DNA from: an uncultured archaeon
Lineage (GTDB): Archaea; Iainarchaeota; Iainarchaeia; Iainarchaeales; 1-14-0-10-31-34
DNA length: 64,000 nucleotides
Direction: 5' to 3'
NCBI GenBank assembly: GCA_964608675.1
Contig: CAZSOZ010000005.1
Span: 1 to 64,000 of the forward strand
Part shown: in pieces, positions 46,698-58,399 of the stretch
Numbering within the stretch: the stretch's first letter is position 1
Layout: each line of letters opens with the position of its first letter
Notes under the pieces: generated by a model
Databases searched by the model: none
Told to the model about the DNA's origin: nothing
What the model saw: the letters and a program-made list of their open reading frames with translations, nothing else
Program-made: the position numbers and the translations under genes

Positions 46698-47543
46698 TCA
46701 CTTAACAAATCCCTTAATTTTTCTGGCTGAATTGTTTTCTGCAAGCAAAACCGATTCAGTTAATTTCACTTTAAATCCTTTTGATTTCAGGAAACCAATT
46801 AAAAAAAGCATGTTGTTTTTTCTTTCATCAAGGTTATGGCATTCCATTGCAATTCTCTTGATTTTTCTGAAGCATGAATCAGGAAGTCTGTAAAGAACTT
46901 TGTATTCAGCTCCTTCAATATCAATTTTAAGGAAATCGCAGTAACTTATTTTATTTAATTTAAATATTTCATTCAGAGTAACTGAATTAACTTCAATAAA
47001 ATTTTTTTTGTTAAACCCTTTTGACTTAATAAACTGGTTTGTATATTTATTTTTGTTTTTTTCTTCAAAACCGTAAACTGAATGGCCTCCGGAATGGTTT
47101 TCAGACAAAAAAATTCTTTCTTTTCCTTTTTTGTCTGAAACCGCCAGATTAAAAGGAAAAATTTTGTCTTCAAGATTATTTGATTCAATGTTTTTTTTCA
47201 GAATTTTAAAGTTTTCTGCCACTGGTTCAAAAGAAAACACTTTAACTGCTTTTTTTGATGCAAAAACAGAAAAAAATCCTGCTTGTGCACCCAAATCAAT
47301 TACCACAGAACCTGATTCAATGATGTTTATTCCGTACTGGTCTTCTAAAACTGTTTCTGTAAACAAATATTTATCCACTGTTTTTGTGCGCATTGTGAAT
47401 AAAAGCCCGTCTTTCATTTTAAGATTCAAAGGTTTTTTTTTGGTTAACTCTAAATAGTTGAAGAAATAATCCTGCCAGTTTTTTATTAATTTGATTACAG
47501 TTATTCCGCGCTTAATTTCTTCAATTAAAAAAGCTCCTTTCAT
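46698..47543 (-). CDS. FkbM-family methyltransferase
   Basis: IDLGAQAG.FS, FEPV..NF, LKIDIEGAE. Confidence 0.85.
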   Translation of the reverse strand: MKGAFLIEEIKRGITVIKLIKNWQDYFFNYLELTKKKPLNLKMKDGLLFTMRTKTVDKYLFTETVLEDQYGINIIESGSVVIDLGAQAGFFSVFASKKAVKVFSFEPVAENFKILKKNIESNNLEDKIFPFNLAVSDKKGKERIFLSENHSGGHSVYGFEEKNKNKYTNQFIKSKGFNKKNFIEVNSVTLNEIFKLNKISYCDFLKIDIEGAEYKVLYRLPDSCFRKIKRIAMECHNLDERKNNMLFLIGFLKSKGFKVKLTESVLLAENNSARKIKGFVK

Positions 47544-47556
47544 TCAAACACTTGCT

Positions 47557-48852
47557 TTATTTTAAAACATTTTTAATTTTCTCTAAATCAGAAAACTTTA
47601 TTTTAATTTCTTTTCCTGTTTGCATGTTTTTCAGGGAAAATTCTTTTGCCGTGAATTCTTTTTCCCCTAAAACAACAGCAAAAGGAATCCCTTGTTTAGA
47701 GACAAAATCCAAATTCTTTGAAATGCTTCTGTTAAGCAAATCCATTTCAGTTTTAATGCCCAAACCCCTGATTTTTTCAGCTAAACTAACTGCATTAACT
47801 GAATTATTAATTGGAATTACAAATATTTTGGTTACTGTTTTCTTGCTTTCAATTCCTTTGTTTTCTAATTCATCTAAAATTCTTTCCAAGCCAAAAGAAA
47901 TTCCTACAGCAGGAAATTCTTTGTCTTTTCCAGAAATCAATCCAATCATTTTATTGTATCTTCCGCCGCCGCCAACAGAACTTTTAATTTTTCCTTTTTT
48001 TAAAAGGATTTCAAAAATCGGGCCTGTGTAATACGCCAAACCGCGAACAAGATTCGGAGTTATGTATAAGTTAGTTATTTTGTATTGTTTTGACAAGTCT
48101 AAAATTTCTTTTAATTCTTTTATTCCTGTTTTTCCTTCTTCTGATTTAACTTTTTTTTCTAATTTTTTTAGTATTTCTTCATTGCTTGCTTTCAATTCAA
48201 TTAATTCAAATATTTCTTTCATTTTTTTTTCTTCAATGCCTTTTTCTTTTAACTCTTTTTCTATTTCTTTTTTTGGCTGTTTATCCAGTTTATCTATTGC
48301 CAATAAAACAGGCAGAACTTTTTCTTTTTCTATTCCAATTTCTGTCATTAATCCATTCAATAATTTTCTGTTGTTTAAACGTATTTCTACCTCCAGTTTC
48401 AGTTCTTTAAAAACTTTTTCAGCTATTTTAATTATTTCTATATCTGCCTGCATTGATTTTGTTCCAATTATATCGGCATCACATTGATAGAATTCCCTGT
48501 ATCTTGCGGTTGTTGTTGGCCCGTCTCTAAAAACTCTTTCAATTTGGTATCTTTTAAAAGGCATTCTTAAATTTGAATTCATTGCAATTACTCGTGCTAA
48601 TGGAACAGTCAAATCATACTTTAATCCTAATTTTCTTTTTCCTTGGTCTTCAAACGAAAAAATTTCTTTTAGTATTTCTTCTCCTCCGGCATACTTTGAA
48701 TTTAATACTTCAAATCTTTCAAATACAGGGGTTTCTATTGGGGAATAACCATATAATTCAAATACTTTTTTTATTTTTTCAATTATTTCCTGTTTCATAA
48801 TTTGTTTTTCCGGCAGGAAATCTCTTGTTCCTTTTGGTTGCATTAATTCCAT
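47557..48852 (-). CDS. hisS: histidyl-tRNA synthetase
   Basis: PKGTRDF, YDLTVPLAR, REFYQCD, RGLAYYTG, GGGRY; next to tRNA-His. Confidence 0.95.
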   Translation of the reverse strand: MELMQPKGTRDFLPEKQIMKQEIIEKIKKVFELYGYSPIETPVFERFEVLNSKYAGGEEILKEIFSFEDQGKRKLGLKYDLTVPLARVIAMNSNLRMPFKRYQIERVFRDGPTTTARYREFYQCDADIIGTKSMQADIEIIKIAEKVFKELKLEVEIRLNNRKLLNGLMTEIGIEKEKVLPVLLAIDKLDKQPKKEIEKELKEKGIEEKKMKEIFELIELKASNEEILKKLEKKVKSEEGKTGIKELKEILDLSKQYKITNLYITPNLVRGLAYYTGPIFEILLKKGKIKSSVGGGGRYNKMIGLISGKDKEFPAVGISFGLERILDELENKGIESKKTVTKIFVIPINNSVNAVSLAEKIRGLGIKTEMDLLNRSISKNLDFVSKQGIPFAVVLGEKEFTAKEFSLKNMQTGKEIKIKFSDLEKIKNVLK

Positions 48853-48936
48853 GTCAAATCACTTTTTTTGTTTTTGCATAACAAAAACCTTTCTTTTGAA
48901 CAGCTTGCATTTTTCTTTTTGAAAGAAAAAGAGCAG

Positions 48937-49010
48937 GGCCGCGACCGGGATTCGAACCCGGCTCTGGGGATCCACAGTCCCCTATCCTAAACCACTGGAC
49001 GACCGCAGCC
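48937..49010 (-). tRNA. tRNA-His(GTG) with encoded G-1
   Basis: G-GCTGCGG/TCGCGGC-C, GGGGA-CT-GTG-GA-TCCCC, GGTTCGAATCC. Confidence 0.93.
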
Positions 49011-49184
49011 ATTAATTGAATGAATTTTAAGCTGGAAAAATTTTTTATTTGGATTGCATTCTGGAAAGTATTTAAATAATTAGCAGAATAATTGTCTGTT
49101 ATGAACTCGATCACTTTTCATGGCAATCAATAATATTTGAGTTATGTAGTTATTAAAAAGCCTTTGTCTGCGTTTTTTATTTAT

Positions 49185-49294
49185 GGCTCCATGGTGTAAT
49201 GGATTAGCATCACAGCTTGCGGTAAACTTTTAGAAAAAGTTTAATCAAAAGTTGCAATAAGCTGTTGGCCAGGGTTCAATTCCCTGTGGGGCCG
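49185..49294 (+). tRNA. tRNA-Arg(GCG) with 37-nt intron (49223-49259)
   Basis: ACAGC-TT-GCG-G|A-GCTGT; BHB TTGC/GCAA with GGT and TAA bulges. Confidence 0.88.
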
Positions 49295-49353
49295 TCCGAG
49301 CTGCTTCTCGGAAGGGAGCGCACCATTTCGCTTTGCTTATGGCACTGCAATAA
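49295..49353 (+). repeat. tRNA trailer element copy 1
   Basis: TCCGAGCTGCTYCTCGGAAGGGAGCG + hairpin + ACTGCAATAA; copy 2 at 49541-49592. Confidence 0.8.
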
Positions 49354-49456
49354 GCTAATTATTTTTAAATTCAATTGAATTAAGTTTTTTTTATGCAGTT
49401 CGGCTGAGTGCAAGCGAATGCCGTGCTCTGTGTTAAACCGGCGGAACGGTTTTTTT

Positions 49457-49540
49457 GCAGGAGTAGCGAAGCGGTCAAACGTGCTGGCTTCAGGGGCCAG
49501 TGGCTTAGTGCCTTCGGGGGTTCGAATCCTCCCTCCTGCA
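49457..49540 (+). tRNA. tRNA-Leu(CAG)
   Basis: GCAGGAG/CTCCTGC acceptor, CTGGC-TT-CAG-GG-GCCAG, long variable arm. Confidence 0.93.
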
Positions 49541-49592
49541 TCCGAGCTGCTCCTCGGAAGGGAGCGTCCGGCATAAAGCCGGACTGCAATAA
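49541..49592 (+). repeat. tRNA trailer element copy 2
   Basis: First 26 bp are 25/26 identical to 49295-49320. Confidence 0.8.
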
Positions 49593-49687
49593 AATGCATT
49601 AAAGTTTTATTTAATGCATTTCTTTTGTGTTATTCTGTCTGTTCGCGATGTAGGGCATGCTGTTTGTTTTATTTGATAGCCATTGCA

Positions 49688-50674
49688 TTATCTGTTAACT
49701 GCCATGCTGTAAACTTGTTCAATTATTAGTCCATACACTATTGTAAGAACATAAAAAATTGTGTTTGACAACAAAAGGAAAACTGAAAAAACTGCAAAAC
49801 CCATCATTAACCATAATAAGTCTGTTATTATTCCAAATAAAGGCATTTGTTGTTTTACTCCTTCTAACACGCTTTCTAGTTGTTCGTTTGATAAATCTTG
49901 TTCTTTTTGTATTTCTTGTTCTACTAATTTTTTGTATTCTTCTGAATCAAGGTAGTCTTTTTGTATTAATACTGCCTGATAAAATAAAATTGCGTTTGGG
50001 TCTGAAGAATTTTCTAATGCCTGAAATTGAGGTAATTCAATTATTTGTTTTGCTGTTTGTTTTTGGGTTTTAATTATTGCTTCTGTAAACATGTCTGTTA
50101 ATTGCTGGGTTGTTTGTTCTCCTCCGGCTATTTTTAGTAATTGTTCGTCAATTTGTTTTTCGTACATTTCTTGGTTGTTGTAAACAGTTAAGGCTGTAAT
50201 CAAAAAAAACCCTAATGCAAGTATTGTTCCGGTTTTATGAATTCCTGTTCCAAGAAGCCTTATTGAAACATATTTTTTTAATTCAAGTTTTTTTACGTGA
50301 ATTAATTCAACTGCTAACGCTAAGCCAATTAAATAAAATATTCCTGCAAGGAAGTATTCCTGTAAACCTGAAAATAAAAGCATTGAAATAATTAATCCTG
50401 TTATTGTTCCTCCTAAAGAAACAATAAATGAATTAAGTTTGTTTTCTTCTGTTTTTGCATGAATTGCAGTTAATGCAATTGTTATTGGAAAAAGAAAAAC
50501 AAAAAACAGGAATTCACTTGTTTTTAAAATTGAAATCACTTGATTTATTTCATTTAAATCAAGGATTTTTGTAAGAGTTAATCCTGATGCATTAAGAAAA
50601 TAACTCCATAAAATAACACTTAAAAGTATTCCTGCCATGAAAGCAAAATTTTTTTTAGTTAAATTTAATTTCAT
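49688..50674 (-). CDS. hypothetical polytopic membrane protein
   Basis: Several TMs with a helical extracellular loop; coupled to the upstream gene. Confidence 0.6.
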   Translation of the reverse strand: MKLNLTKKNFAFMAGILLSVILWSYFLNASGLTLTKILDLNEINQVISILKTSEFLFFVFLFPITIALTAIHAKTEENKLNSFIVSLGGTITGLIISMLLFSGLQEYFLAGIFYLIGLALAVELIHVKKLELKKYVSIRLLGTGIHKTGTILALGFFLITALTVYNNQEMYEKQIDEQLLKIAGGEQTTQQLTDMFTEAIIKTQKQTAKQIIELPQFQALENSSDPNAILFYQAVLIQKDYLDSEEYKKLVEQEIQKEQDLSNEQLESVLEGVKQQMPLFGIITDLLWLMMGFAVFSVFLLLSNTIFYVLTIVYGLIIEQVYSMAVNR

Positions 50675-53124
50675 TTTTGTTCTCCCTCTTTTTTGTTTAA
50701 TATTATGGTAATTGCAATTAATAGGATTAAGATATTTATAAAGTTTGTTTCCGGAACTTTTATCTGCTGCATTGCCTGTTCATTGTAATTAAAGGTTGTT
50801 CTTCTGGTGTTCATAGAAGTATTTATTTCTCCTTGTGCTTTTGCTGTAGCATACACCCAGTAATTTTTTTGTCCTTCTAAGTTTGTCTGTAAGTCAGCTG
50901 AAGACACAACTAAAACAAAATCTTTTCTTCCTTCTCCTTGTGAATAAGGAAGAATCTGCTGGTTTACTAATTCCAGTCCTGGAATTAAATTTGGCTGTTC
51001 GTTTATGTTTGAATCAGGAACATTTTCTTTTATTTCAAAATAAATATTAAAGTCTTGCACTTCATTTGTTGCGTTTTCTATTCTTGCTGTTATTTCAAGG
51101 TTTTCTTCTTGTTTTATTATTTCAGGATTTACAGATAATTTTGCTATATTAATTAAATCTTTTATTTGAATTTGATTTATTTTTATTTCTGCTGAATCAG
51201 AGTTTTCTGCTCCATAATTGTCTTTTACTGTTAATGTTGCTGATGCAGTTCCTGCTTGACTGCAAGTTATTACAGGGTTTTCCTGTATTAGAGTTTGTTG
51301 TATGCAGGGAGTTCCTTTTACATTAATTATTTTCCATTTGTATTCAACTATCATTCCTTCATCTGTGCTTCCAGTTGAATTAAGCGTTATGTTTTCTCCT
51401 TTTACAGCAGTGTATGGTCCGTTTGCTTCTGCTTTTGGAAGAAAGTTTCCTGACAATGAAACATTTATTTCTTTTGAGTCTTGTGCTGTATTATTGAGTA
51501 CATCTGTTATTCTTATTTTTGGATTATGTTTTCCTGCATTGTAAGTGTAAGTCATCCAGTTTTTTGGAGAATTAGTTGTTGTATCAATTGTTCCGTCTCC
51601 GTCAAAATCCCATTCAAATACATATGGGGGAATTCCTGAACTGCATTCACTCCAGTCTCCGCAAACCCAGTCTTCACTGCAAAAGCAGTCTTCATCTATT
51701 TGTTTATTGCAGTTGTCATCTAATGAATTTCCGCATACTTCTTCTGCATTTGGGTTTATTGATGGATTTAAATCATCACAGTCTGTTCCTGAAGAGCAGT
51801 CTGTTGGATGAAATCCATTAAATCCATCTGAATCTAAATCAGAGCAGTTTTCACTTGAATCAATTGTTATTTCTATTTTTGTTGTTTGTTTTGATGGAAT
51901 TGCTGTGTTTTCTGGAATGTAATCTACAAAAAACTCGTATTTGTCTCCAATGTTTCCTGTCGGCATTACATGCCAAGTATTAATGCAGGTTTCTCCTGCA
52001 AGCATATTTGAACAAGTCTGTGGATTTAAATCAGTTGTATAAAAAGGGTTTCCTGAATTCATTGGAATAACTCCTTTTGGAAGAAACTCTGAATAAGTAA
52101 TTATTAATTTAGGTCTTTGATTTGAGCTTGAAGCTTCTTTTGAATAAAATCTAATGTTTCCCATTCCATCATAGTTGTAATATTTCATCATTAATCCATG
52201 ATTGTCTGCTGAATTATTAACCCAGTTTTGAATTAGGTTTGTTATTTCAACTAAATAAGTGTTTGCTGTTGAATTGTTGTCTGGAATAAAAATTGTTTCG
52301 TATGCTGATTCATAATCTGTTCCTGCATTCATGTTTATTGCATCCCATGCAGAAGTATTGTATTCTGCATAATATGCGTTTGCTCCTCCTGCACTATTCC
52401 AGCCTGATGTTGTTTCCCCCCATTCTTTATGTATTTGATGAATGCTTATTGGATCGCCTCCTCTCCATGCAGAAGTTGTTCTTATTTCTAGAAAAGCTTC
52501 AGTTATAATTGTTCCTGTAGGAATTGATGAGACATCAAATTTCATTAAAATCCTGCTGTTTTCATTTATTAATGATAGTCCATCGCTTGTTCCGTAATGC
52601 TGTTCGTTTTCAGCCAAATAAGTGTCTTTTCCTCCTGAATCAATTGAAATTGTTTCTGTTGGATCTAATACTGCCTGTATGTTTCCGCAGTCAAAGTCAT
52701 TGCATTTAACGCTTGTTTGGAATGTAAATAACTGGTTTTGAACTACATTAATGTTTTGAAATGGAAGAAGCTGGTTTATTGTTATTGTTGCTTGTGTTGC
52801 AGGACATGAATCAGGGATGTCTACACAGAAACCCCATGTTCCTGAATTACAGGTTTGAATTCCTGGACAGCCTTCACTTGTACTGCAATTTAATGTGTCT
52901 CCGTCAGTGCATGTCCCGCATGCCTGCAGGATTTCAGGTTTATTGTTTGTTGTTCCGCATTCATTTTTGTCAGTGCATTCTCTTGATTGTATTCCCTGTA
53001 GAATGTTTGCATTTAAATTTACGTCTAATGGTTCATTTCCTGTGTTTGTATTTAAGTCAAGCTGGACTTCTATTGCATGAACCGAACAACAAAATAAAAT
53101 TATTGCAAGCAAAATTTTTTTCAT
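50671..53124 (-). CDS. surface protein: PKD domains, DNRLRE-like domain, Cys/Asp-rich repeats, C-terminal VPETN-TM anchor
   Basis: Signal peptide, WDFDGDG, DTYL..RILMKFD, DCDD.NPSINP.A.E.C. Confidence 0.78.
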   Translation of the reverse strand: MKKILLAIILFCCSVHAIEVQLDLNTNTGNEPLDVNLNANILQGIQSRECTDKNECGTTNNKPEILQACGTCTDGDTLNCSTSEGCPGIQTCNSGTWGFCVDIPDSCPATQATITINQLLPFQNINVVQNQLFTFQTSVKCNDFDCGNIQAVLDPTETISIDSGGKDTYLAENEQHYGTSDGLSLINENSRILMKFDVSSIPTGTIITEAFLEIRTTSAWRGGDPISIHQIHKEWGETTSGWNSAGGANAYYAEYNTSAWDAINMNAGTDYESAYETIFIPDNNSTANTYLVEITNLIQNWVNNSADNHGLMMKYYNYDGMGNIRFYSKEASSSNQRPKLIITYSEFLPKGVIPMNSGNPFYTTDLNPQTCSNMLAGETCINTWHVMPTGNIGDKYEFFVDYIPENTAIPSKQTTKIEITIDSSENCSDLDSDGFNGFHPTDCSSGTDCDDLNPSINPNAEEVCGNSLDDNCNKQIDEDCFCSEDWVCGDWSECSSGIPPYVFEWDFDGDGTIDTTTNSPKNWMTYTYNAGKHNPKIRITDVLNNTAQDSKEINVSLSGNFLPKAEANGPYTAVKGENITLNSTGSTDEGMIVEYKWKIINVKGTPCIQQTLIQENPVITCSQAGTASATLTVKDNYGAENSDSAEIKINQIQIKDLINIAKLSVNPEIIKQEENLEITARIENATNEVQDFNIYFEIKENVPDSNINEQPNLIPGLELVNQQILPYSQGEGRKDFVLVVSSADLQTNLEGQKNYWVYATAKAQGEINTSMNTRRTTFNYNEQAMQQIKVPETNFINILILLIAITIILNKKEGEQK

Positions 53125-53143
53125 TTGATTAAAAAAGGTTTTT

Positions 53144-54526
53144 TTAATTTAAAAGTCTATCCTTTTTGTTTTTTTTTCTGCTGAATTCAAATATCATTAA
53201 AACAGAAATTAATATAACCATTATTCCAATTAAATTTGTTTCAGGAATCTGAAGTTCTTTTACTCCAAAATAATTAAAGATTGTTCTTCTTGTATTCAAT
53301 AAAGTGTTTGCTTCTCCTGAAGAAACAGCTGTAGCATACACCCAATAATTTTTTTGGGTTTTTAGGTTTGCCTGTAAGTCAGCTGAAGAAATCGTGAAAC
53401 TGAAATCTTTTTGTCCGTAAGCAGTATTTATTGTCAGACTGTTTATTGAATCTGAAATTAATTCCGGCAAAGCAGAAATGTTTTTATCAGAAACATTTTC
53501 TTTAATATAATATTTTAAATCAAATGTTTGAGGAACATTTGTCATGTTTCTTGCTTTTACAATTACTGTTAAGTTGTCTCCTGTTTTAATTATTTCTGGT
53601 TCAACTTTAATTTTTGCTATATCCACTTTATTTTCTCTGTAAACAGGCTGGACATTCAATTGAGTTAACGCAAAAGCTCGCCCTCCTCTGTTGTCTCTTA
53701 CTATTAAATAAATCACAGTATTTACAGGATTAATGCAGACAATTTCAGGATTTTTTTTTGTTGAAGAAAAAGGATGGCATGTTCCTGCACCCGGAATGAC
53801 CCAATGATAGTGTGTAATTATTCCGTCAGGATCATAGCTTGCACTTGCATCTAAAGTAAACGGGATTCCTGGTTCTCCAGAATAAGGTCCGCTTGGATCG
53901 GCTACAGGGAGAACGTTTGCTCCAGGAGAATGAACTGTAATCTCTTTGATTGTTTCTTTTTCTTTCATTCTTGTATCCGTTACTTTTATTTTTGCGTTGA
54001 ATACTCCTGGATTTGAATAAGTATGATTCACTGTAATTGAATCAGGGGAATTAAGTGTTGTATCAATTGTTCCGTCTCCGTCAAAATCAACTTCAAATAC
54101 ATATGGTGCTGAACCATTTATGGCTGTTGCATTAAAAATAACAGGCAGTGGAGCAGTTCCTTCTGCTGGATCAGGGTTTGTTGTTGTTGAAAGAGTTAAA
54201 TTATAAACTTTTATTGTTTTAACTGCATTTCTTGTTTCGCTTGCATCTGTTACAGTTAATTTTGCATTAAATTGTCCTGCATTGATGTAATCATAAAATT
54301 CATTGCTTGTAGTTTCCGGATCATTTATTGTTGTTCTTTTATCAATTGTTCCGTCTCCGTCAAAATCCCATTCAAATACATAAGGTCCTGTTCCATTTGA
54401 AACAATTCCTGTGAATTCAATTGTTTCTCCTGCTTCTGCAATTAATGGATTTGCACTTAAATCAATTGTTAAACTATAAGCATTTGAAATAATAAGCAAA
54501 ATAAATAATGCAATTATTTTTTTCAT
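53144..54526 (-). CDS. surface protein with three PKD domains and IPETN-TM anchor
   Basis: Signal peptide, WDFDGDG/VDFDGDG, LDASASYDPDG. Confidence 0.8.
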   Translation of the reverse strand: MKKIIALFILLIISNAYSLTIDLSANPLIAEAGETIEFTGIVSNGTGPYVFEWDFDGDGTIDKRTTINDPETTSNEFYDYINAGQFNAKLTVTDASETRNAVKTIKVYNLTLSTTTNPDPAEGTAPLPVIFNATAINGSAPYVFEVDFDGDGTIDTTLNSPDSITVNHTYSNPGVFNAKIKVTDTRMKEKETIKEITVHSPGANVLPVADPSGPYSGEPGIPFTLDASASYDPDGIITHYHWVIPGAGTCHPFSSTKKNPEIVCINPVNTVIYLIVRDNRGGRAFALTQLNVQPVYRENKVDIAKIKVEPEIIKTGDNLTVIVKARNMTNVPQTFDLKYYIKENVSDKNISALPELISDSINSLTINTAYGQKDFSFTISSADLQANLKTQKNYWVYATAVSSGEANTLLNTRRTIFNYFGVKELQIPETNLIGIMVILISVLMIFEFSRKKNKKDRLLN

Positions 54527-54570
54527 TCTGCAATAAAAAAGGTTGTTCTTCTTTAAATTCTTTGCTTTTG

Positions 54571-55464
54571 CTATTTTGTTGTAATTTTTATTTCTTCTTC
54601 AAATGCAATTATTGTATGTTCTGCCTGGCTTACAAGAATTTCTTTGTCTTCTTTTAGTACTGGATGAGCTTTTAATGCTTCTTTTGAAATTAATTCCCGC
54701 AAAGCTATTTTTGTTTTTGTTTCTCCAAATTCTTTTGTCAGCCATCTTTCTGCAAAAGGAAGCCCTTTGAATTCTTCAATTGATTTTTCAAGTATTTTTC
54801 TTGCATCCATGTTTCTTAATGGAATTGCTTTGCTGAATTCAAAGATTTCTGTTTTTGCTCCTTCTTTTATTCTTCCGTTTCCTGTTGAAGCAAAAGGCTC
54901 TATTGCATAAGCATTTCCGTCTTCTATTTTTCTTGGATCGTTTTTTGAAATATTGGGTATTGCTGGAGGAGCATGCGCTATGTATTTCATTAAACCGTGT
55001 CCTGTTAAATTTTCAACAGGCTTAAATCCAAATCCTTCAATTGTTTTTTCTATTTCTTTTCCTATTTTTCCTAATTCTGTTCCTATTTTAATTAAACTTA
55101 ATGCGTTTTCTAATGCCTGTTCTGAAGCTTCAATTAATTTTCCATTTTCTTTTGAAAAATCCAAGGTAATGCTTGAATCCGCAATAAAGCCTTCAATATG
55201 AACTCCAATATCAATTTTTAAGACATCTTTTTTTTCAATCACTGTCTTGTCATCAAATGAAGGAGTATAATGTGCAGCAAAATTATTCAAAGACAAATTT
55301 ACAGGAAAAGCCATTCCTGCTTCTGCTTCAATTATTTCTTTTTCTATGCTTTCAGCTAAATCCAGTAATTTCATTCCAATTTTAGCTTTTTTTACTGCAT
55401 TTGCTTTAACCTGCTTTAAAACTTTTCCGGCTTTAATATATTTTTCAAATTCTTTTTTTTCCAT
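54571..55464 (-). CDS. map: type II methionine aminopeptidase
   Basis: AAHYTP, KIDIGVHIEG.IADS, NLTGHGL, AIEPFA, SQAEHT. Confidence 0.93.
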   Translation of the reverse strand: MEKKEFEKYIKAGKVLKQVKANAVKKAKIGMKLLDLAESIEKEIIEAEAGMAFPVNLSLNNFAAHYTPSFDDKTVIEKKDVLKIDIGVHIEGFIADSSITLDFSKENGKLIEASEQALENALSLIKIGTELGKIGKEIEKTIEGFGFKPVENLTGHGLMKYIAHAPPAIPNISKNDPRKIEDGNAYAIEPFASTGNGRIKEGAKTEIFEFSKAIPLRNMDARKILEKSIEEFKGLPFAERWLTKEFGETKTKIALRELISKEALKAHPVLKEDKEILVSQAEHTIIAFEEEIKITTK

Positions 55465-55473
55465 TAATATCCT

Positions 55474-57864
55474 CTACCCAAAAGCGCTTAAATTACTTTG
55501 TTTTCCTCCGTGAATTAAATCCTGTTCTGTGTAACCTAATTCCTGCACTATTTTAATTACTGCAGGAATAACCTGATGAGAAATATAATACTCTGAATCA
55601 TAGTTTCCTTCTTCTATGAATTCTTCTAATTCTGCTTTATCTGAAATGCTTTTTCCTGTTTTTGTAATAACATAACCTATAATACTTCCTGTTCCCAGAA
55701 TTTTTCCTTTTTTTATTGCTTTTTTTGCTGCAGCAACATGCGGGCCTATTGAATCATATCCTGCAATAGGTTTTTTGATTTGACTGAAAATAATTAAATC
55801 TTCTTTTTTGGTTTTTCCTGTTTTGAGTTCTTCTATTACTTTTTTAATTTCTTTTACTGCTTTTTCTGGTTTTCCTTCTTTTAAAATTAATTCCAAAACC
55901 TTTTTTTGTGTTTTTTTTGCTATTCCGCTCCAGTCTCTTCTAACATATTCAAAGCCGACTATTTTTATTTTGTTTTCTTCGTCAATTAGCGCATACCTTT
56001 TTTTTGCTGCTTTAATTCCTTCTTTTTTTGTTACAAAAATTCCTCTTTTAAAAAATCCTTCTAATTCTAATTCCATTACTCCCGGCAGGCTTTCGTTTGT
56101 TTTTTTTACGAATTCAATTACTTCTTTTTTGTTTTTGTTTTCAGGAATTTTAATGAAAGCTGAATCAGTGTCTCCTCCTATTACTCTGAATCCTTTTTCT
56201 TCTGCTTTTTTTGCTATTTCTTTTACGTAATACCTGCTCCATGCAGTTACTGCTTTTGCTGATTCAAATGAATACCATCTGCTTCTTTCATATCCTAAAT
56301 AACCATAAAAACTGTTCAATAAAATTTTGAGTGCATGCTGTCTTGCATTTAATTGAATTTTTTTTGCTTGATTTTTTTCTTCTTTTAATTCTTTTTTTAA
56401 TTGAGTTCTTTTTTCAAGCAGTTCTTTTTGCACTAACGGAAGGAAGCCTTTTTTGTTTTCACAAAACCATGTTCCTTCAGGAGAAACATGTTTTCCGTTT
56501 TTACAGCATTTACAATTCAAGGTTTCAGGGGAAACATTGTGTGAAATCATTATGCTTGGATGCAGGCTTCTGAAATCCAAAACCGCAATATTTTCATGCA
56601 GTCCTGCAGTGGGTTCTCTTACAAACCCTCCTTTAAATGATTTCATCATTCTTTCTTTTACTTCTTCTTCTTTTGGTTTATTGGGAAACAAAATTCTTTC
56701 TTTGAAGCTTTTGTCCATTAAAAGTTTTTCAACCATGTCGCTGGCTGAACTCCGGTTTACTCTGAATAAAGTTTGTTTTGTTAGTTTTCCTAATTCAGTC
56801 ATTAAAGGCATGAAGTCTGTTGCCAGTTTGTAAGTGTAATAAGAATCCTCATAATTGTATTCAAGCAATTTTTCAAGGTTTTTTTCGTCTTTCCAGATTC
56901 TTGTTATTTCTTCTGCAATAATTTTTTCTTTTTGTATTCCATAAACCGAATTAACTACTGTTTCCAAGTCATATTTTATGGAATTAATTATTCCGAATCT
57001 TGAAAGCATGCTTACTAATCTGAATGCATCAAAATGCTGTATTCCTTTTATTTTTGTTGCGTTGTACATTCCTTTTCTTTGAATTAAAGGCTCGCTTTCG
57101 TCAATTCCTATATTGAATCTTGTTTTTAGTTTTCTTGCTCTTTCTTTTAAGTAAGGCAAATCAAAGGAGTCTCCGTTGTATGTAATAATTACATCTGTTT
57201 TCTTTTCTTTTATTTTTTCTTTTAGTTTTTCTATTATTTCTTTTTCGTTTTCCACCAGCAAAACATGGCTTCCTTTTTTTGTTGTAATAATTTGTGTTTT
57301 AATGGAATTTTTTTCAGAAAAAGTTATTGCACACATTAATATTTCGTTTTTTTTTGGGTCGCTGAATAATTCTTTTGAAGAATAAGTTTCCAAATCCAAA
57401 GCAAAAGAATTCAAGTCTGTTTTCATTTCAGTTTTTTTAACTGAAATCACTTGATTGTTTTTTGTTTCTATTTCTATTCCGTTTAACGGCTCTAATTGTT
57501 TGTCAATCAAATACCTTTGAGTAAAAATCAAGTCAAATTCTCTTTTTTCTTTTATTTCAGGTATTTCTTTTATTTTTTGTCTTGCAGTAACTAAATCTGC
57601 TGTTGAATTAAAGTACACTTTAATGTAATTTTTCCATTCTTTTGCTTTAACTGCTTTAACTGTTTTTCCGCTGTCTTTGAATTCTGTTTCCATTATTTTT
57701 TTTAATGCTTTTTCTTTGCTGTCTGTTTCAACAAAAAAGTAAGGCAGAAAATTTTTTTCTGTAAATATTTGTATTTTTTTTTCTGTTTTTACATACAGTT
57801 TTATAACTGTTTTTTCGTTTTCCTGAATGGAATCAATGTCTAAAAGTATTCCTTTGATTTTCAT
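55474..57864 (-). CDS. polB: family B DNA polymerase
   Basis: DLET, YNGDSFD, DFRSLHPSI, KILLNSFYGY, GDTDS, KKRY. Confidence 0.95.
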   Translation of the reverse strand: MKIKGILLDIDSIQENEKTVIKLYVKTEKKIQIFTEKNFLPYFFVETDSKEKALKKIMETEFKDSGKTVKAVKAKEWKNYIKVYFNSTADLVTARQKIKEIPEIKEKREFDLIFTQRYLIDKQLEPLNGIEIETKNNQVISVKKTEMKTDLNSFALDLETYSSKELFSDPKKNEILMCAITFSEKNSIKTQIITTKKGSHVLLVENEKEIIEKLKEKIKEKKTDVIITYNGDSFDLPYLKERARKLKTRFNIGIDESEPLIQRKGMYNATKIKGIQHFDAFRLVSMLSRFGIINSIKYDLETVVNSVYGIQKEKIIAEEITRIWKDEKNLEKLLEYNYEDSYYTYKLATDFMPLMTELGKLTKQTLFRVNRSSASDMVEKLLMDKSFKERILFPNKPKEEEVKERMMKSFKGGFVREPTAGLHENIAVLDFRSLHPSIMISHNVSPETLNCKCCKNGKHVSPEGTWFCENKKGFLPLVQKELLEKRTQLKKELKEEKNQAKKIQLNARQHALKILLNSFYGYLGYERSRWYSFESAKAVTAWSRYYVKEIAKKAEEKGFRVIGGDTDSAFIKIPENKNKKEVIEFVKKTNESLPGVMELELEGFFKRGIFVTKKEGIKAAKKRYALIDEENKIKIVGFEYVRRDWSGIAKKTQKKVLELILKEGKPEKAVKEIKKVIEELKTGKTKKEDLIIFSQIKKPIAGYDSIGPHVAAAKKAIKKGKILGTGSIIGYVITKTGKSISDKAELEEFIEEGNYDSEYYISHQVIPAVIKIVQELGYTEQDLIHGGKQSNLSAFG

Positions 57865-57928
57865 TTTGTCTCTTTATTAATCCAAAAAACAAAGTTTATT
57901 AAAACAGAAAAGCCTTATATTTAGCGTT

Positions 57929-58399
57929 ATGCCGCATAGAAGACCGTCTAAAGGCAAAAGTTCTACTTATTCGATTGAAGATCTTGTAAGAGACATTAAA
58001 GCATTAAACAGTTCTGTTCTTTTGTTGAGCCAGAAAATGAATTATCTTGTAAGAAACGAAAAAATTTTAGGCAGAAATTTTATTATTTTAAACAAAAAAT
58101 TAAAGGCTTTAGAGCAAAGAAAGCCTTCTTCTTCAGGAAGCAGTTCTGTACCTGAAGATTTGTCTGATGAATTAGCTGAACTCCAGGAAAAAACAAAACA
58201 AAATGAATTCATGCTCAATGAAGTTAAATCTGATTTAAGCAAATTTAATTCTGTTTATGCGAAAGCCGAAGAAGTAAAGGAATTAAAATATATAGTTGAA
58301 GCAATTAATCCTTTGGAGTTTGTGACTTTAGATCAAGTAAAAGATTTAATTAAAGAAAACCCCTCTGCAAAAACAAAAAAATCAAAAAAGAAAAAATAA
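57929..58399 (+). CDS. hypothetical coiled-coil protein
   Basis: Heptad-rich; ELKYIVEAINPLEFVT motif. Confidence 0.6.
   Translation: MPHRRPSKGKSSTYSIEDLVRDIKALNSSVLLLSQKMNYLVRNEKILGRNFIILNKKLKALEQRKPSSSGSSSVPEDLSDELAELQEKTKQNEFMLNEVKSDLSKFNSVYAKAEEVKELKYIVEAINPLEFVTLDQVKDLIKENPSAKTKKSKKKK

Follow-up and report, generated by a model that had tools for sequence, protein, structure and literature searches.

Introduction

How can a single domain of a surface protein hold an in-frame block of other domains whose two ends are the swapped halves of one further module, and is such a block still able to move? The question is raised by the gene of an 817-residue surface protein in the 64,000 nucleotides analysed here (the window), positions 1 to 64,000 of contig CAZSOZ010000005.1 of an uncultured archaeon (assembly GCA_964608675.1). 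The first PKD domain of this protein (PKD1) is broken by an insert of 453 codons (1359 nucleotides). A reading made from the letters of the window (the sequence-only reading) had described the split, and had proposed that a circular DNA carrying adhesin domains integrated there, as a possible means of surface-protein shuffling or phase variation. Our results agree with the anatomy that it described, but they favor, with a probability of about 80%, an ancient, fixed, nested domain insertion over a mobile or switching element.

The window is contig C5 of its genome (G000; 1.2 Mb, 31% G+C, 53 contigs), and the database name of a related protein, P0005, puts the group in Candidatus Diapherotrites, one of the DPANN archaea. 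Comparisons were made with this genome and 40 genomes of relatives, in which G001 to G005 denote members of the same genus and G006 a member of another genus; labels of the form P00xx denote database proteins.

A PKD domain interrupted by a multi-domain block

The 817-residue protein has a signal-peptide-like start, the split PKD1 with its insert, a K319L-like PKD domain (aa, amino acid residues, 562-648), a beta-sandwich region and a C-terminal transmembrane helix (aa 792-816 in the AlphaFold2, AF2, model). A tandem paralog adjoins its gene on the upstream side in the same orientation and is 44% identical to aa 496-810 of the 817-residue protein; since its PKD domains are unbroken, it serves as a model of the state before the insertion. 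The two genes and the parts of the broken domain, in the order of the protein, are as follows.

50671..53124 (-): gene of the 817-residue surface protein (open reading frame list; Pfam, NCBIfam; AF2 model)
53144..54526 (-): tandem paralog, 460 residues, PKD domains unbroken (PKD_4, E 2.4e-20, three stretches)
52990..53073 (-): N-terminal part of PKD1, aa 18-45, ...DVNLNANILQGI; aligns with the start of the paralog PKD and is kept in 7/7 relatives with an N terminus
52918..52989 (-): start of the insert, second half of a module resembling the thrombospondin type-1 repeat (TSR), aa 46-69, strands B and C; corresponds to positions 20-43 of the intact unit
52801..52917 (-): second Cys module, aa 70-108; follows every intact TSR-like module, 30/30 aligned units
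52660..52800 (-): N-terminal strands of a beta-sandwich, aa 109-155, ending ...CGNIQAVLDP; AF2 strands 113-162, kept in orthologs and giant paralogs
52075..52659 (-): inner variable domain, here of the DNRLRE / disaggregatase-repeat type, aa 156-350 (NF033679, PF06848)
51829..52074 (-): C-terminal strands of the same beta-sandwich, aa 351-432, KGVIPMNSGNPFYTT...FFVDYIPEN...; AF2 strands 361-422, kept in orthologs and giant paralogs
51682..51828 (-): MopE-type putative metal-binding Cys motif, aa 433-481 (PF11617)
51631..51681 (-): end of the insert, first half of the TSR-like module, aa 482-498, strand A, CSEDWVCGDWSECSSGI; corresponds to positions 3-18 of the intact unit
51457..51630 (-): C-terminal part of PKD1, aa 499-556, PPYVFEWDFDGDG...; kept in 9/9 relatives

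The N joint reads ...DVNLNANILQGI followed by QSRECTDKNECGTTNNKPEILQAC..., or, in a longer form counted from the signal-peptide-like start, ...EPLDVNLNANILQGI and then QSRECTDKNECGTTNNKPEILQAC..., and the C joint reads ...CSEDWVCGDWSECSSGI followed by PPYVFEWDFDGDG. At the same place the paralog reads VSNGTGPYVFEWDFDGDG without interruption (in its longer form ...IEFTGIVSNGTGPYVFEWDFDGDG, also unbroken). The insert thus occupies the loop directly ahead of the conserved PY.F.WDF strand of PKD1. Pfam matches a PKD domain only at aa 562-648 of the 817-residue protein and calls none for PKD1 (PF18911 and PF00801 tested); the split domain was recognised through its alignment with the PKD of the paralog. 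In addition, the 62 nucleotides that adjoin the C joint on its outer side (51566-51627) match the two PKD copies of the paralog at 90% and 82% identity, which identifies this flank as PKD sequence.

Inside the insert, the second half of the TSR-like module follows the pattern Q.R.C.D...CGT...KP...Q.C and the second Cys module the pattern C..G....C.T...CPG.Q.C....W..C.D....CP; the latter, referred to here as the CPG module, has a weak likeness to fibronectin type I only (Z 2.1-2.3). The inner domain is matched by NF033679 (E 1.2e-23, 83.9 bits, cutoff 34) and PF06848 (37.2 bits, cutoff 33.9), and the MopE motif by PF11617 at aa 448-478 (E 1.1e-9, 38.8 bits, cutoff 27). Because the beta-sandwich is itself broken by the inner domain, the nesting is three deep: the PKD domain encloses the split TSR-like module, which encloses the sandwich, which in turn encloses the variable domain. 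The arrangement has the marks of a nested insertion, as the PKD domain is continuous in homologs, both of its parts are retained here and the domains of the insert are known elsewhere. The in-frame, multi-domain cassette nested in a PKD loop that had been read from the letters is therefore found as described.

The insert ends as halves of a TSR-like module

At the two ends of the insert stand the halves of one Cys/Trp motif in swapped order, the second half at the start and the first half at the close. The intact motif, C..W.C..WS.C..G.Q.R.C.D...CGT...KP...Q.C, occurs in five copies in the same genome, in three other open reading frames (a 1922-residue giant, a 1583-residue giant and a 145-residue protein), and these copies confirm the swapped order; the 817-residue protein is the sole one in the genome with unpaired motif halves. 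An alignment of 30 intact units, each consisting of the motif and the Cys module that follows it, was collected from the genus and one neighbouring genus, and C3, W7, C9, C15, R22, C24, C30 and C43 are invariant in it. The AF2 model built on this 30-row alignment has a mean confidence (predicted local distance difference test, pLDDT) of 88.1 and strands at residues 7-9, 19-26 and 40-42. The split falls between unit residues 18 and 20, in the tight turn that leads from strand A, which bears the Trp, to strand B, which bears the Arg, a geometry read from the secondary structure of the model alone.

According to this model, the intact motif likely has a TSR-like fold. When it was compared by VIA-align with 48,161 representative chains, the top 20 rows were all TSR or TSR-related, with 17 thrombospondin type-1 repeats, a TSR-bearing C8 chain, pleiotrophin and midkine; the best match, 8oxr, superposes 45 residues with a root mean square deviation of 2.3. 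The scores are low for so small a module, yet the list is one-sided. The archaeal module is about 45 residues long and, like the TSR (Pfam TSP_1), is modelled as elongated and three-stranded, strand A bearing Trp and strand B Arg, with six Cys in all. Unlike the TSR, the module is without a Pfam match, its Cys are interleaved with the Trp (C..W.C..WS.C) and its host is an archaeon. The TSP1-like character that the sequence-only reading gave to the motif finds weak support in the fold (Z 4.8) and none in the Pfam family profile. TSP1 is treated as an animal-type adhesion domain in PMC3417536, and a literature search on archaeal, prokaryotic or DPANN thrombospondin repeats found no archaeal TSR.

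Age and spread of the insertion

Both joints are kept in G003 (1516-residue open frame), G004 (784-residue open frame) and G005 (gene spread over two contig ends), while G001 keeps the C joint on a contig that stops before the N joint. In these four genomes the locus has the same neighbourhood, with the paralog, its PKD unbroken, and a MetAP-like gene on one side and a membrane protein of about 330 residues on the other. By genome, the joints are conserved in 5/6 members of the genus. With the metagenome orthologs P0002, P0003, P0006 and P0007 from the database added, the N joint was found in 7/7 and the C joint in 9/9 of the sequences that cover them, at 35-59% identity to the window protein, the orthologs coming from few species. 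Because the protein-level pattern recurs in all relatives that cover it, it lies far beyond chance.

Outside the genus, no match among the 40 relatives searched spans a joint. A wider search with aa 14-110 against 1.84 billion cluster representatives gave 153 clusters at E<=0.001, and among the 150 of these that were listed, the split N joint is present only in P0001, P0003, P0004, P0059 and the fragment P0144; the remaining listed clusters match intact modules. P0004 is an ortholog of 769 residues. P0138 had been considered as spanning the N joint and was rejected, since it carries two intact motifs. In G006, of the other genus, PKD proteins without a break are encoded close to the HisRS gene, one of them of 517 residues. 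As the PKD is unbroken both in the paralog and in G006, the insertion is the derived state, and judging from these comparisons it probably occurred once, before the divergence of the genus.

The ortholog in G003 (L022:1426-5973(+), on G003:C6; 1502-residue protein P0059) has an insert grown to 1114 codons with both joints kept, and within it the sandwich-MopE unit is duplicated. The additions to the G003 insert are a CPG module, a laminin-G-type domain (PF13385, E 6.3e-23) and the second sandwich-MopE unit.

DNA signals at the joints and read evidence

The DNA signals on which the idea of a circle was built were reproduced. ATTCC stands on the plus strand at 51632-51636 and 52991-52995, 1359 nucleotides apart, and removal of the 1359 nucleotides in silico shows a 5-nucleotide microhomology and leaves a perfect palindrome of 10 nucleotides; circularising the insert restores the Cys motif. 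If the process were going on now, circular DNA made up of adhesin domains would integrate and excise at a GGAAT core within the palindrome and cause phase variation or ongoing shuffling. In 20,000 random deletions of 1359 nucleotides from the same genome, a microhomology of at least 5 nucleotides was seen in 1.6%, a palindrome of at least 10 nucleotides near the joint in 2.3% and both together in 0.05%, so that the coincidence taken as it stands speaks for such an element.

Against this, both joints encode Gly-Ile and GGA makes up 62% of Gly codons; because of this codon usage, two Gly-Ile dipeptides share GGAAT with a probability of about 0.38. Neither signal is kept in relatives: in G004, G003 and G005 the joint microhomology is 0, 1 and 2 nucleotides, and the empty-site palindrome obtained in silico is 2, 0 and 0 nucleotides. 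With a slack of 9 nucleotides the longest identical run is 2 in G004, 6 in G003 and 2 in G005, as against 5 here, and runs of at least 5 are found at this slack in 3.6% of random pairs. What the orthologs share is a Gly codon, a Gly-x dipeptide being present at both joints in 6/7 orthologs that have both. This duplicated Gly-x could go back to a short homology where the original crossover took place or, just as well, to a requirement for Gly in each of the two turns. Since silent sites are saturated at this divergence, the exact repeat and palindrome of this genome are best read as chance.

Logan contigs of two sequencing runs of one study, X1 and X2, which contain 99% and 92% of the words sampled from the stretch (X1 may be the source sample), provided the read evidence; a third run, X3, covers only 51421-51624. 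The C joint is bridged by record 6 of X1 (51595-51932) and record 10 of X2 (51595-52178), and the N joint by record 2 of X1 (51904-53300) and record 14 of X2 (52929-53256). The sequence-only reading had named reads that fail to span the junctions as a sign of misassembly, and had proposed a search for the empty site and for the junction of the circle. The first concern is removed by the bridging contigs. The search, made in the contigs of X1 and X2, found neither form, although contigs drop rare variants and a rare form is possible, so that the read evidence alone speaks weakly against a circle. Two joints reported in this material were discarded, as they are PKD repeats of the paralog that cross-map onto 51569-51627, with gaps of 226 and 747 letters that fit the positions of the repeats; a loose end past 51624 is likewise paralog sequence.

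One point does favor an assembly artefact, in which a chimeric contig would have joined a PKD gene to a fragment of a giant-protein gene: the de Bruijn contigs break at 51577-51624, in the PKD repeat beside the C joint. But contigs of both runs bridge the two joints, and the same joints stand in independent assemblies of four other species, by which we regard the artefact as refuted and its remaining likelihood as negligible.

The conservation of the joints at 35-59% protein identity in all relatives that cover them also bears on the circle as a current process, as does the lack of a nearby recombinase: by eye, none was recognised among the 16 open reading frames of at least 100 codons at 47000-58000, and the four that were run against Pfam matched no recombinase family. 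With the joints fixed and the DNA signals specific to one genome, we consider circular-DNA integration or phase variation at this locus, as a process going on now, very improbable.

Probable origin from giant paralogs and exchange of the inner domain

Giant paralogs of the genus carry the same unit as the insert, and three of them were used.

G000:C3, 108364-114129 (-), equal to L026:65-5830 (-): giant of the window's genome
G000:C8, equal to L027:60-4808 (+): giant of the window's genome
G004:C127, equal to L028:2254-6816 (+): giant of 1521 residues

In G000:C3 and G000:C8 the order is CPG module, sandwich with a variable domain, intact TSR-like module and CPG module, and in G004:C127 the whole unit lies between two intact TSR-like modules at aa 470 and 819. 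The insert is one period of this arrangement and must for that reason look circularly permuted, so that the swapped halves alone do not call for a circle. For the permuted order, ordinary recombination, or copying, from one copy of the motif to another is explanation enough. The sequence-only reading had set such recombination against its own proposal, as something that orthologs might reveal, and the giants bear this out in part, for they carry the unit between two intact motifs.

A circle confined to the origin is a different matter from the current process discussed above. In this explanation, one ancient circle looped out between the flanking TSR-like modules of a giant gene and entered the PKD loop by a single crossover at a short homology of Gly codons. 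A single crossover accounts for the same motif phase at both ends, units with two flanking intact motifs exist (G004:C127), and the Gly-x duplicated at the joints of six of the seven orthologs is what crossover homology would leave. Nevertheless, the same sequence is expected if the template was switched twice at one microhomology, or if a linear insertion was selected for ends that refold; Gly is expected anyway from the turn of the motif (G.Q in the 30-unit alignment) and from the PKD loop (G..PY in uninterrupted PKD domains); and with silent sites saturated any trace in the DNA is bound to be lost. We hold a circular intermediate at the ancient origin to be unlikely, and nothing requires it; the mechanism of the original DNA event is no longer readable from the sequence.

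The later history of the ancient, fixed insertion is visible in its inner domain, which is of three unrelated types with no cross-type BLASTP match at E<=1e-3. Type A (DNRLRE) is found in G000, G005 and unit 1 of G003, in the last with the laminin-G-type domain ahead of it. Type B is found in P0002, P0003, P0007, unit 2 of G003 and the giants C3 and C8 of G000. Type C is shared by the ortholog of G004 and the giant G004:C127, at 48% identity, and is seen weakly in P0006. Two of the three types, B and C, are therefore common to orthologs and giant paralogs, a distribution that suggests exchange of cassettes between paralogs. The cassette has been re-loaded repeatedly with inner domains while both joints stayed fixed. 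The surface-protein shuffling of the sequence-only reading survives in this form, with inner domains of three types and two of them shared with the giants, but without a sign of recent integration.

The C-terminal part of the sandwich was also examined in a tree of 16 rows and 72 columns, from which P0008_1 was dropped as identical to G004_C71_1. Seven of the ten ortholog segments group together (80/84), P0006 groups with the G000 giants (84/95) and the two G003 units stand elsewhere. The tree decides neither for one origin nor for gene conversion.

As for the giants themselves, they are proteins of 1500-1900 residues that consist of arrays of the unannotated Cys module of TSR-like fold, each copy followed by a CPG..C Cys module, and Pfam has nothing for the Cys modules of these giants. 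G004:C127 starts with a DUF362 domain, and the relative P0008 carries the database name right-handed parallel beta-helix repeat protein.

Do the two halves come together?

Each half of the split motif holds three Cys, an odd number. The series C-W-C-W-C is present in 9/9 first halves and [RK].C...C...C in 7/7 second halves, so that in every relative the split motif retains its six Cys, its two Trp and its Arg/Lys; the PKD strand PP[YF].F.WDF is retained as well. This is the pattern expected from purifying selection on a complete module, and because the core residues are kept in both halves, the halves probably reassemble as a clasp. The two insert ends would lie close together in space, to judge from the A-B turn at which the model of the intact module is split, the full-length model being of low confidence there.

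A complex prediction of aa 18-72 with aa 478-560 scored 0.41, as against 0.01 for the best of three controls, and lends weak support to pairing of the two flanks. The mark that it passed is reached by 116/157 solved complexes and 2/215 mismatched pairs, and scores of 0.60 or less include only 18/157 solved complexes plus both mismatches that passed. Between runs, 93% or more of the contacts agree, and the partners have a pLDDT of at least 67. The pass may reflect likeness to solved PKD and TSR folds.

In the opposite explanation, the half motifs have lost their pairing and persist as relics, the insert being tolerated because of its flexible, linker-like ends and PKD1 possibly being non-functional. 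It would fit the AF2 model, which is without confident structure at aa 1-69 and 424-499, and the failure of Pfam to call PKD1, with the best PKD stretch at aa 562-648. However, the Cys, Trp, Arg/Lys and PKD-strand residues kept in every relative at such low protein identity are unexpected of relics, and the complex prediction weakly supports pairing of the flanks. We therefore find relics a doubtful explanation, and we put re-association of the two halves into a complete TSR-like module at about two chances in three.

Proposed history and points that weigh against it

The ancient and fixed insertion that we favor can be described as follows. A genus of Diapherotrites-type DPANN archaea has two PKD surface proteins, the products of tandem paralogs, and one of them gained a block of about 450 residues. 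The block is one period of the giants' unit, that is, a TSR-like module, the CPG..C module, the sandwich with its variable domain and the next TSR-like module. The unit is cut at the same point, the A-B turn, in both TSR-like modules, so that strands B and C open the insert and strand A closes it. The halves would then re-associate as a disulfide-bonded TSR-like module that holds the insert ends together at the PKD loop, and such a clasp would let both the PKD domain and the displayed cassette fold. After the insertion, as the comparison of orthologs shows, the innermost domain was exchanged for unrelated ones, two of them shared with the giant paralogs. The cassette would thus be a cell-surface display site for swappable, probably ligand-binding, domains.

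Several results weigh against this account. For the TSR-like fold, Pfam TSP_1 gave no match to the 817-residue protein (E<=0.1) or to the intact unit and the three giants (E<=1), a Foldseek search of the Protein Data Bank (PDB) with the model of the intact unit found nothing at E<=0.001 (best, a THSD7A TSR didomain at E 0.27), and the best Z of the structural comparison is below the level that the tool calls safe. For the refolding, the full-length AF2 model (9-row alignment) has a mean pLDDT of 57.3 and falls below 50 in the joint regions, and the complex prediction gave no contacts, so that pairing of the TSR halves and pairing of the PKD halves are indistinguishable in it. For the origin, no giant was found in which a MopE motif follows the sandwich ahead of the second TSR-like module, and no known giant matches the insert exactly; in the sandwich tree the ortholog inserts do not form one clade, the tree needing three changes and having no starred branch. 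For the age, G002, of the same genus, yielded no ortholog: neither paralog was found and there were Cys-module matches only, though the locus may be unassembled there.

Relation to known systems

Nested (discontinuous) domain insertions are a well-documented general class. As in these, the parent PKD domain is broken in a surface loop by independently folding domains, its halves are retained and the paralog is unbroken. Here, in contrast, the insert ends are swapped halves of one module, the nesting is three deep and the innermost domain is exchanged between species. Circular permutation can arise from tandemly repeated units (permutation by duplication), and our case is like it in that a piece of one period starts and ends at the same point of the unit, but unlike it in that there is no free-standing protein and the new termini of the insert are joined to the loop of a host domain.

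The engineered insertion of circularly permuted domains into hosts, as in sensors built on circularly permuted green fluorescent protein (cpGFP), is standard. There as here, permutation sets the ends of the insert side by side so that they fit a host loop, whereas the present case is natural, multi-domain and structural, not a switch, and implies no allosteric coupling. Cassette-based surface variation is known from pilin-type gene conversion and shufflons. The locus resembles these systems in that modules are common to an expressed surface gene and its paralogs and the inner domain differs between close relatives; it departs from them in that no recombinase-like open reading frame was seen nearby by eye, the contigs show no variation within the population, and the differences are between species.

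A literature search on domain insertion, circular permutation and nested domains returned engineering and survey work only, and an insert bounded by swapped module halves was not found described in it, which is no proof of absence. The combination of swapped-half bounds, three-level nesting, a swappable core and an archaeal TSR-like module is apparently new. If the halves refold, the locus is a natural case of an engineering trick, in which a domain is permuted so that its ends meet and is then inserted into a loop, and it would show how a domain of about 85 residues can tolerate a large multi-domain block within it. It also draws attention to DPANN archaea that build giant surface proteins from an unannotated Cys module of TSR-like fold, and to a display position that takes unrelated domains across species, which bears on the surface variation of small, probably host-attached cells. 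The joints further illustrate how conserved residues, together with codon bias, can give rise to a persuasive DNA signature of repeat and palindrome as a side effect.

A broader extension is that the split TSR-like module is a natural insertion adaptor and serves as a general route of surface diversification in host-dependent DPANN archaea. Recombination between modules of giant genes would free circles of one period whose self-complementing ends snap shut after translation, and the cassettes would enter the loops of other surface proteins, to be re-loaded later by recombination with the giants. We offer this chain, in each of its steps, as speculation with rather long odds against it.

Neighbouring genes and other observations

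By eye from the translations, the open reading frames at 47000-58000 include those for HisRS, for a membrane protein and a MetAP-like protein, for PolB and for the two PKD proteins. The following features lie beyond the 3' side of the 817-residue protein gene.

49688-50674 (-): membrane protein of 328 residues without a Pfam match, kept beside the locus in G001, G003, G004 and G005
48936-49543: tRNA cluster just past the membrane-protein gene
48936-49009 (-): tRNA-His
49185-49297 (+): long tRNA call, which may contain an intron
49456-49543 (+): tRNA-Leu
49276-49599 (-): open reading frame of 107 residues that overlaps the tRNA cluster and is probably spurious
46698-47543 (-): FkbM-type methyltransferase (PF05050, E 1.2e-19), adjoining HisRS

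In G001, an open reading frame of the Phage_integrase family (L025:1-810(-), on G001:C48; 35.1 bits, cutoff 27.1) lies past the membrane-protein gene, where the window has the tRNA cluster, and may mark a tRNA-integrated element in that genome. It is unrelated to the age of the insert, because the insert is older than that species. Elsewhere in the window's own genome, contig C10 (13,070 nucleotides) has a G+C content of 53.8%, as against 29-32% in contigs C1-C9, and may be a contaminant or a foreign element in the genome bin.

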